Shown here: piece by piece, positions 30,258-30,902 of the stretch
Layout: each line of letters begins with the position of its first letter
Numbering within the stretch: position 1 is the stretch's first letter
NCBI RefSeq assembly: GCF_030013595.1
Contig: NZ_CP122768.1
DNA: 64,000 bases
Origin: Escherichia coli
GTDB lineage: Bacteria > Pseudomonadota > Gammaproteobacteria > Enterobacterales > Enterobacteriaceae
Strand: one strand, 5' to 3'
The notes under the pieces: model-generated
Seen by the model: the letters and a program-made list of their open reading frames with translations, nothing else
The model's database searches: none
What the model was told of the DNA's origin: nothing
Program-made: the position numbers and the translations under genes

Positions 30258-30902
30258 ATGGCTCGCACAAAACTGAAATTCCGGCTGCATCGGGCAGTGA
30301 TTGTCCTGTTCTGTCTTGCCTTGTTAGTGGCGCTGATGCAGGGAGCGTCATGGTTTAGTCAAAACCACCAGCGACAGCGTAATCCACAGCTGGAAGAACT
30401 GGCCCGCACCCTGGCGCGTCAGGTGACGCTGAACGTTGCACCGCTGATGCGTACCGACTCACCGGATGAAAAACGCATTCAGGCGATCCTCGATCAGTTA
30501 ACGGATGAAAGCCGTATCCTCGACGCGGGCGTGTATGACGAACAAGGCGATCTTATCGCCCGTTCTGGCGAAAGCGTCGAAGTGCGCGACCGGTTGGCGC
30601 TCGACGGCAAAAAAGCGGGCGGCTATTTTAACCAGCAGATTGTCGAACCTATTGCCGGGAAAAACGGACCGCTCGGCTATCTGCGCCTGACGCTCGACAC
30701 CCATACGCTCGCCACCTAAGCCCAACAGGTGGATAACACCACTAACATTTTACGCCTGATGTTGCTGCTCTCACTGGCAATCGGCGTAGTGCTGACCCGC
30801 ACGCTGCTACAGGGTAAACGCACCCGCTGGCAGCAATCGCCCTTCCTGTTAACCGCCAGCAAACCGGTGCCGGAAGAGGAAGAAAGCGAGAAAAAAGAGT
30901 GA
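30258..30902 (+). pseudogene. ytjB: ytjB (smp) reading frame interrupted by in-frame TAA
   Basis: ORF MARTKLKFRLHRAVIVLF... stops at TAA 30717-30719 after 153 codons; same frame then continues AQQVDNTTNILRLMLLLSLAIGVVLTRTLLQGKRTRWQQSPFLLTASKPVPEEEESEKKE to TGA 30900-30902, giving 214 codons if read through. Confidence 0.55.

Follow-up and report, generated by a model that had tools for sequence, protein, structure and literature searches.

A 64-kb stretch of Escherichia coli DNA (64,000 nucleotides, hereafter the window) contains ytjB (smp), a membrane-protein gene whose reading frame is interrupted by a TAA stop and then continues. Does the gene end naturally at this codon, is the stop an error of the assembly, or has a mutation cut the protein short? 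An earlier note on this DNA had placed the in-frame stop at 30717-30719, codon 154 of ytjB, and had read it as a recent nonsense mutation. The features of the locus are as follows.

29184..30152, minus strand: serB, the upstream neighbour, divergently transcribed (annotation of collinear references).
30258-30902, plus strand: ytjB (smp), 214 sense codons when codon 154 is counted as one.
30258..30719, plus strand: truncated ytjB ORF, 153 codons and the premature TAA (ORF list, translation, Pfam SMP_2, NCBIfam NF008419, STE03254.1).
30294..30350, plus strand: codons 13-31, first transmembrane segment (TM1; N-terminal signal anchor), kept (hydropathy, AlphaFold2 helix 2-64).
30351..30716, plus strand: codons 32-153, predicted periplasmic PAS-like (weakly CHASE8-like) domain, kept nearly whole (AlphaFold2, Foldseek).
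30717..30719, plus strand: premature ochre stop TAA at codon 154, with a derived T at 30717 and an ancestral G (GAA, Glu).
30720..30902, plus strand: ytjB remnant, predicted to be untranslated, codons 155-214 and the native TGA, intact (comparison with HCP5S3_I2 and K-12, match to the YtjB model).
30738..30812, plus strand: codons 161-185, second transmembrane helix (TM2) with the family-invariant Gly176, predicted to be untranslated (hydropathy, 37 of 37 homologues, model).
30930..31946, plus strand: lplA, the downstream neighbour, an intact ORF of 338 aa (annotation of the syntenic reference).

The TAA belongs to the reading frame that starts at the ATG at 30258. Behind it, the ytjB frame stays open for 60 codons (...NILRLMLLLSLAIGVVLTRTLL...) up to the native TGA at 30900-30902, and translation gave the 214 codons that the earlier note had claimed; all of its coordinates were right, and so was the length that it gave for K-12 Smp (b4387: 645 nt, 214 aa). 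lplA begins 27 bases past the native stop, and the enterobacterial gene order of serB (divergent), ytjB and lplA is kept in the window and in the references. The truncated product matched Pfam SMP_2 (PF10144) over positions 1-152 of the 159 in the model (E=1.3e-65; 220.4 bits, cut-off 28.9). With NF008419 ('YtjB family periplasmic protein'; cut-off 279), it scored 294.4 bits and the read-through translation 424.6 bits. The 57-aa translation from a GTG at 30729 alone matched positions 158-214 of this equivalog model (E=5e-30), and the downstream frame is therefore not open by chance. Judged by its sequence, ytjB of the window belongs to the YtjB/Smp family, and its predicted product is a truncated member.

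Comparison with other E. coli genomes located the origin of the stop. Aligned with ytjB of K-12 MG1655 (b4387, NP_418804.1), the window gene shows 12 nucleotide differences, of which 11 are synonymous. The twelfth is the G→T at 30717 that separates GAA (Glu154) in K-12 from TAA in the window, and the proteins are otherwise identical. Within codons 155-214 there is a single difference from K-12, and it is synonymous. Of the complete genomes, the closest was that of E. coli HCP5S3_I2 (NZ_CM149870.1; pig faeces, UK), which is collinear with window positions 1-44132, with 10 SNPs over these 44.1 kb. Over 3,645 bases around ytjB, the G at 30717 is its sole difference from the window, and the remnant at 30720-30902 is the same as in this functional allele. 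K-12 as outgroup identifies the T as the derived state. An 81-base query at the site matched 5,423 complete genomes, each with at least one differing base. The T was absent from 5,426 complete E. coli genomes when we searched with a 55-mer centred on it, a design in which any 28-base megablast seed has to span the T. GAA was thus found in K-12, HCP5S3_I2 and the other complete genomes, and TAA only in the window and in the carrier lineage described below. Since G stands at 30717, and Glu154 is encoded, in K-12, HCP5S3_I2 and every complete genome in which ytjB is present, we conclude that the stop is a nonsense mutation, E154*, and not the natural end of the gene.

The ten SNPs that separate the window from HCP5S3_I2 comprise four missense, one nonsense, two synonymous and three intergenic changes. 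Besides 30717 they lie at 8509, 10398, 17941, 19823, 25669, 28582, 33982, 36408 and 42555; these nine include thrB D120G, creC M191L, ettA T379A and radA V185A, synonymous changes in deoB and deoC, and the three intergenic ones. By comparison with K-12, A379 of ettA is derived in the window lineage and the radA difference is derived in HCP5S3_I2. We looked for a hypermutator signature among the ten SNPs in 44 kb, which are too few for any verdict and of which at least one arose in HCP5S3_I2.

Collinearity with HCP5S3_I2 breaks off within the 5′ end of prfC (minus strand), at about 44132. From there to position 64000, the window consists of lambdoid prophage DNA with genes for a tail fibre, a tape measure, an Ail/Lom protein and a capsid. 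Prophages that occupy the same site in strains W150, ES8 and NCCP 15734 are about 98.8% identical to it. The prophage is integrated at prfC in the window lineage, and HCP5S3_I2 is without it. Its prfC-proximal end (about 44840-46740, by homology) contains a SLATT-domain and reverse-transcriptase-domain gene pair adjoined by a frameshifted dinI-like gene; the pair looks like a defence-associated reverse transcriptase carried as cargo (a moron). A smaller difference among genomes was seen downstream of lplA. The slot between lplA and deoD contains an 87-aa helix-turn-helix gene (31978-32241) in the window and in HCP5S3_I2, and the 444-aa toxin kinase gene hipH (yjjJ) in K-12. The 87-aa protein has no obvious N-terminal similarity to HipH, and the dissimilar genes indicate that this slot is variable among E. 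coli.

If some ytjB genes naturally ended at codon 154, the frame behind the stop would be non-coding. The SMP_2 model itself ends at about residue 160, so that the short product contains almost all of the annotated domain, as this reading would have it. Against it stand the 214-aa proteins with Glu154 of K-12 and about 5,423 complete genomes, and also the conservation of the segment across the family. Among 1.84 billion representative proteins, searched exhaustively, there were 211 relatives, from which we aligned 37 near-full-length homologues that are 21-58% identical to E. coli YtjB. Many short matches among the 211 look like contig-end fragments or frameshifted copies. In the 37, a sample that by its selection is biased against naturally short forms, no protein ends at the codon-154 column and every one extends at least 35 residues past it. 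A second hydrophobic segment is likewise present in 37 of 37. Gly176, within this segment, is one of just two invariant columns in the alignment. Among the genera of Enterobacteriaceae, identity is 94-97% for residues 154-185 and 88-94% for residues 1-153, and the segment behind the stop is thus better conserved than the one in front of it. K-12 and the family-wide conservation of TM2 rule out a natural short form, to which we assign practically no probability; the earlier note had rightly denied that the stop is natural.

Hydropathy analysis of YtjB placed one membrane segment at residues 13-31 and another at about 161-185. Windows above 1.6 occur at TM1, which is preceded by five K/R residues within positions 1-12. 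Positive charges lie before TM1 and after TM2, which argues for a topology with the N-terminus inside, a periplasmic domain and the C-terminus inside. We built an AlphaFold2 model on the alignment of the 37 homologues (mean pLDDT 84). In the model, a helix at residues 2-64 and a second one at 71-82 are followed by four strands at 87-146 and a continuous helix at 149-191, which leaves the periplasmic domain and traverses the membrane as one. Codon 154 lies five residues into this last helix. Hydropathy and model thus agree on what characterizes YtjB/Smp proteins at the N-terminal side, a transmembrane anchor followed by a periplasmic alpha/beta domain. TM2 with Gly176, in contrast, is encoded at 30738-30812 but absent from the 153-aa product. 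A single GAA→TAA change in front of a helix that is conserved throughout the family bears out the proposal of the earlier note that YtjB is cut ahead of its C-terminal helix.

We considered whether the T at 30717 is a sequencing or assembly error, with G as the true base and ytjB intact. Its absence from every complete RefSeq genome would fit such an error. However, the exact 153-aa product has been deposited as STE03254.1 ('Smp protein precursor [Escherichia coli]'), a protein that is recorded on 78 contigs, the longest of 3.43 Mb, and in 127 blocks of the gene index; its source may be the genome of the window itself or a sister genome. The T was also present in three assemblies that we retrieved, NCBI GCA_021649585.1 and the Logan assemblies SRR30668519 and SRR10947500. 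These are 99.97-99.995% identical to the window over 14.5-20.5 kb (1-4 SNPs) and have the window alleles at 28582 and 33982 too. Private SNPs at 36408, 35084, 26584, 26994 and 38096 set them apart from the window and from each other. One allele in assemblies of different runs and projects, on a common haplotype and with private SNPs, largely rules out an assembly error, which we regard as extremely improbable. This agreement among independent data sets takes the place of the read-level support that the earlier note had named as a check.

Because three independent assemblies have one haplotype, each with private SNPs, E154* has been inherited in a clonal lineage. The assembled genomes indicate that it is a real mutation of one E. 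coli clone and not private to the window assembly, and that the allele is older than some of the diversification of this lineage. Having persisted through that diversification, it is at least tolerated. Codons 155-214 have accumulated no mutation in any of the retrieved carrier copies, and the event is therefore young on an evolutionary scale. The word 'recent' in the earlier note holds in this sense, given the undecayed downstream codons and a nearest stop-free relative that is only 10 SNPs in 44 kb away, but the allele is not as recent as one private to this assembly would be. The searchable literature yielded no paper that names STE03254.1 or the accessions of the carrier samples.

In both Logan assemblies, yjjW is called with 234 aa and not 287 aa (12352-13056; window about 38570-39275). 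One of them has its private SNP at window position 38096 and the other has none there. The short yjjW is probably due to a differing start-codon call and not to a mutation.

Could the cell still make the missing part of YtjB? Bacterial ribosomes are known to reinitiate at a start codon close to the site of termination. Nine bases past the TAA, a GTG in the ytjB frame (30729, codon 158) opens an intact ORF of 57 aa, so that the gene might be split, with a TM2 peptide joining the N-terminal fragment and preserving function. However, none of the downstream in-frame starts has a Shine-Dalgarno match, and in duplex with the 16S 3′ end the GTG reaches −0.5 kcal/mol, compared with −6.9 for ytjB and −5.6 for lplA. 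Moreover, the break falls inside the continuous helix 149-191 of the model, from which it follows that a restart would not regain covalent continuity across the membrane, and the 57-aa peptide would need to insert into the membrane independently. We rejected a restart at codon 158 or at the other in-frame starts, as Shine-Dalgarno support is absent, and consider a functional split gene very unlikely.

The fully intact frame past the TAA would also suit full-length YtjB made by read-through or suppression, through an ochre suppressor tRNA or programmed read-through. Yet an intact downstream frame is equally expected of a young mutation. UAA followed by G is an efficient terminator in E. coli, and UAA is the least leaky stop codon. 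No tRNA gene was found in the 64-kb window and no Rfam element in 29000-33000, and a nearby suppressor tRNA or RNA element was rejected on these grounds. Production of full-length YtjB by this route is exceedingly unlikely.

One G→T transversion at 30717 turned ytjB codon 154 from GAA (Glu) into ochre TAA. We propose that the change had a single origin, in the ancestor of the clonal E. coli lineage in which it has since been inherited. Ribosomes would stop at 30717-30719 and yield a YtjB of 153 residues. This product is predicted to be anchored in the membrane by its N-terminus and to have an almost complete periplasmic PAS-like domain. Missing from it would be the last periplasmic helix turns, TM2 (about 161-185, with Gly176) and a cytoplasmic tail of about 30 residues, and the remaining 60 ytjB codons would be an undecayed remnant. 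Taken as a whole, an inherited nonsense allele of single origin that truncates YtjB before TM2 is very probably the correct explanation. Our comparisons show the mutation, its derived state, its inheritance and how conserved the lost part is; that translation ends at this codon, and what becomes of the 153-aa product, we infer from the DNA sequence. As the lost TM2 is the best-conserved part of YtjB and contains an invariant glycine, the function of YtjB is likely to be lost or impaired. The 153-aa protein may have residual function, considering that the whole globular domain is kept and that its score is above the family cut-off (294 versus 279 bits).

An effect of E154* on lplA is conceivable as well, given that no terminator-like site was found between ytjB and lplA. 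A simple scan found no strong promoter match between the two genes. In a genomic SELEX study, an RpoD holoenzyme site at the ytjB-lplA junction was assigned to lplA (PMC3946193), and lplA therefore probably has a promoter of its own. Strong polarity seems unlikely.

E154* might also have been selected in a successful clone and not reflect neutral decay, either because a two-pass, sensor-module-like membrane protein became a singly anchored periplasmic PAS-like domain with altered or dominant-negative activity or through changed lplA expression caused by the untranslated last 183 bases of ytjB. We consider this very unlikely and found nothing here that supports selection or altered function. 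Our data describe E154* as an ordinary nonsense allele, specific to one lineage, of a gene that is little characterised and evidently dispensable. The truncated protein is already deposited as STE03254.1. The change has little bearing on anything but annotation, where it calls for an entry as a ytjB pseudogene or truncated allele (E154*), and neither as two ORFs nor as a short natural gene. As complete RefSeq E. coli genomes are all without it, the SNP at 30717 can serve as a handy marker for one clonal lineage. A natural lineage whose YtjB would be without TM2 and tail also offers a ready-made mutant for the study of this protein.

Compared with YtjB/Smp of K-12, the window has the same serB-ytjB-lplA synteny; residues 1-153 are identical and residues 155-214 would be too if translated. 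In contrast to the 214-aa K-12 protein, the predicted window product has 153 aa and is without TM2 and the cytoplasmic tail. It is the same as STE03254.1 in every residue. In NCBI annotations, YtjB has the AhpA/YtjB family name in common with AhpA of Pasteurellaceae ('hemolysin regulation protein AhpA'). The 'haemolysin' label is presumably an annotation inherited from heterologous phenotypes. Genomes of Haemophilus parasuis list AhpA as a hemolysin regulation protein (PMC6211672). For E. coli YtjB/Smp/AhpA, the searchable literature contained annotation-level mentions only ('core hemolysin gene', 'hemolysin regulation protein'), and a tested function was not found.

The nearest structural likeness is to sensor proteins. 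Searched with Foldseek against the PDB, the YtjB model matched WalK best (E=7e-6 over 199 columns, both transmembrane helices included), and further matches were CusS, DctB, KinD and the LapD-like CdgS9, all with extracytoplasmic PAS-like sensor domains. The CHASE8 profile scored 24.9 bits, below its cut-off of 27, and NF007423 (DgcN/YfiN) scored 25-28 bits against a cut-off of 325. The weak matches to the N-terminal modules of YfiN and of a YfiR-associated kinase reach through TM2 (25-29 bits versus cut-offs of 194-325). With these scores below cut-off and an end only 29 residues past TM2, YtjB falls outside CHASE8 and DgcN (YfiN). YtjB is like the input modules of these sensors (CHASE8 of DgcN/YfiN; the histidine kinases WalK, CusS, DctB and KinD) in its succession of TM1, a periplasmic alpha/beta domain and TM2. 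It is unlike them in its output side, where HAMP, GGDEF and kinase domains are all missing and TM2 is followed by nothing more than a tail of about 30 residues. From the model, YtjB resembles the input part of a membrane sensor to which no output domain is attached, a likeness of fold and topology and not of family membership.
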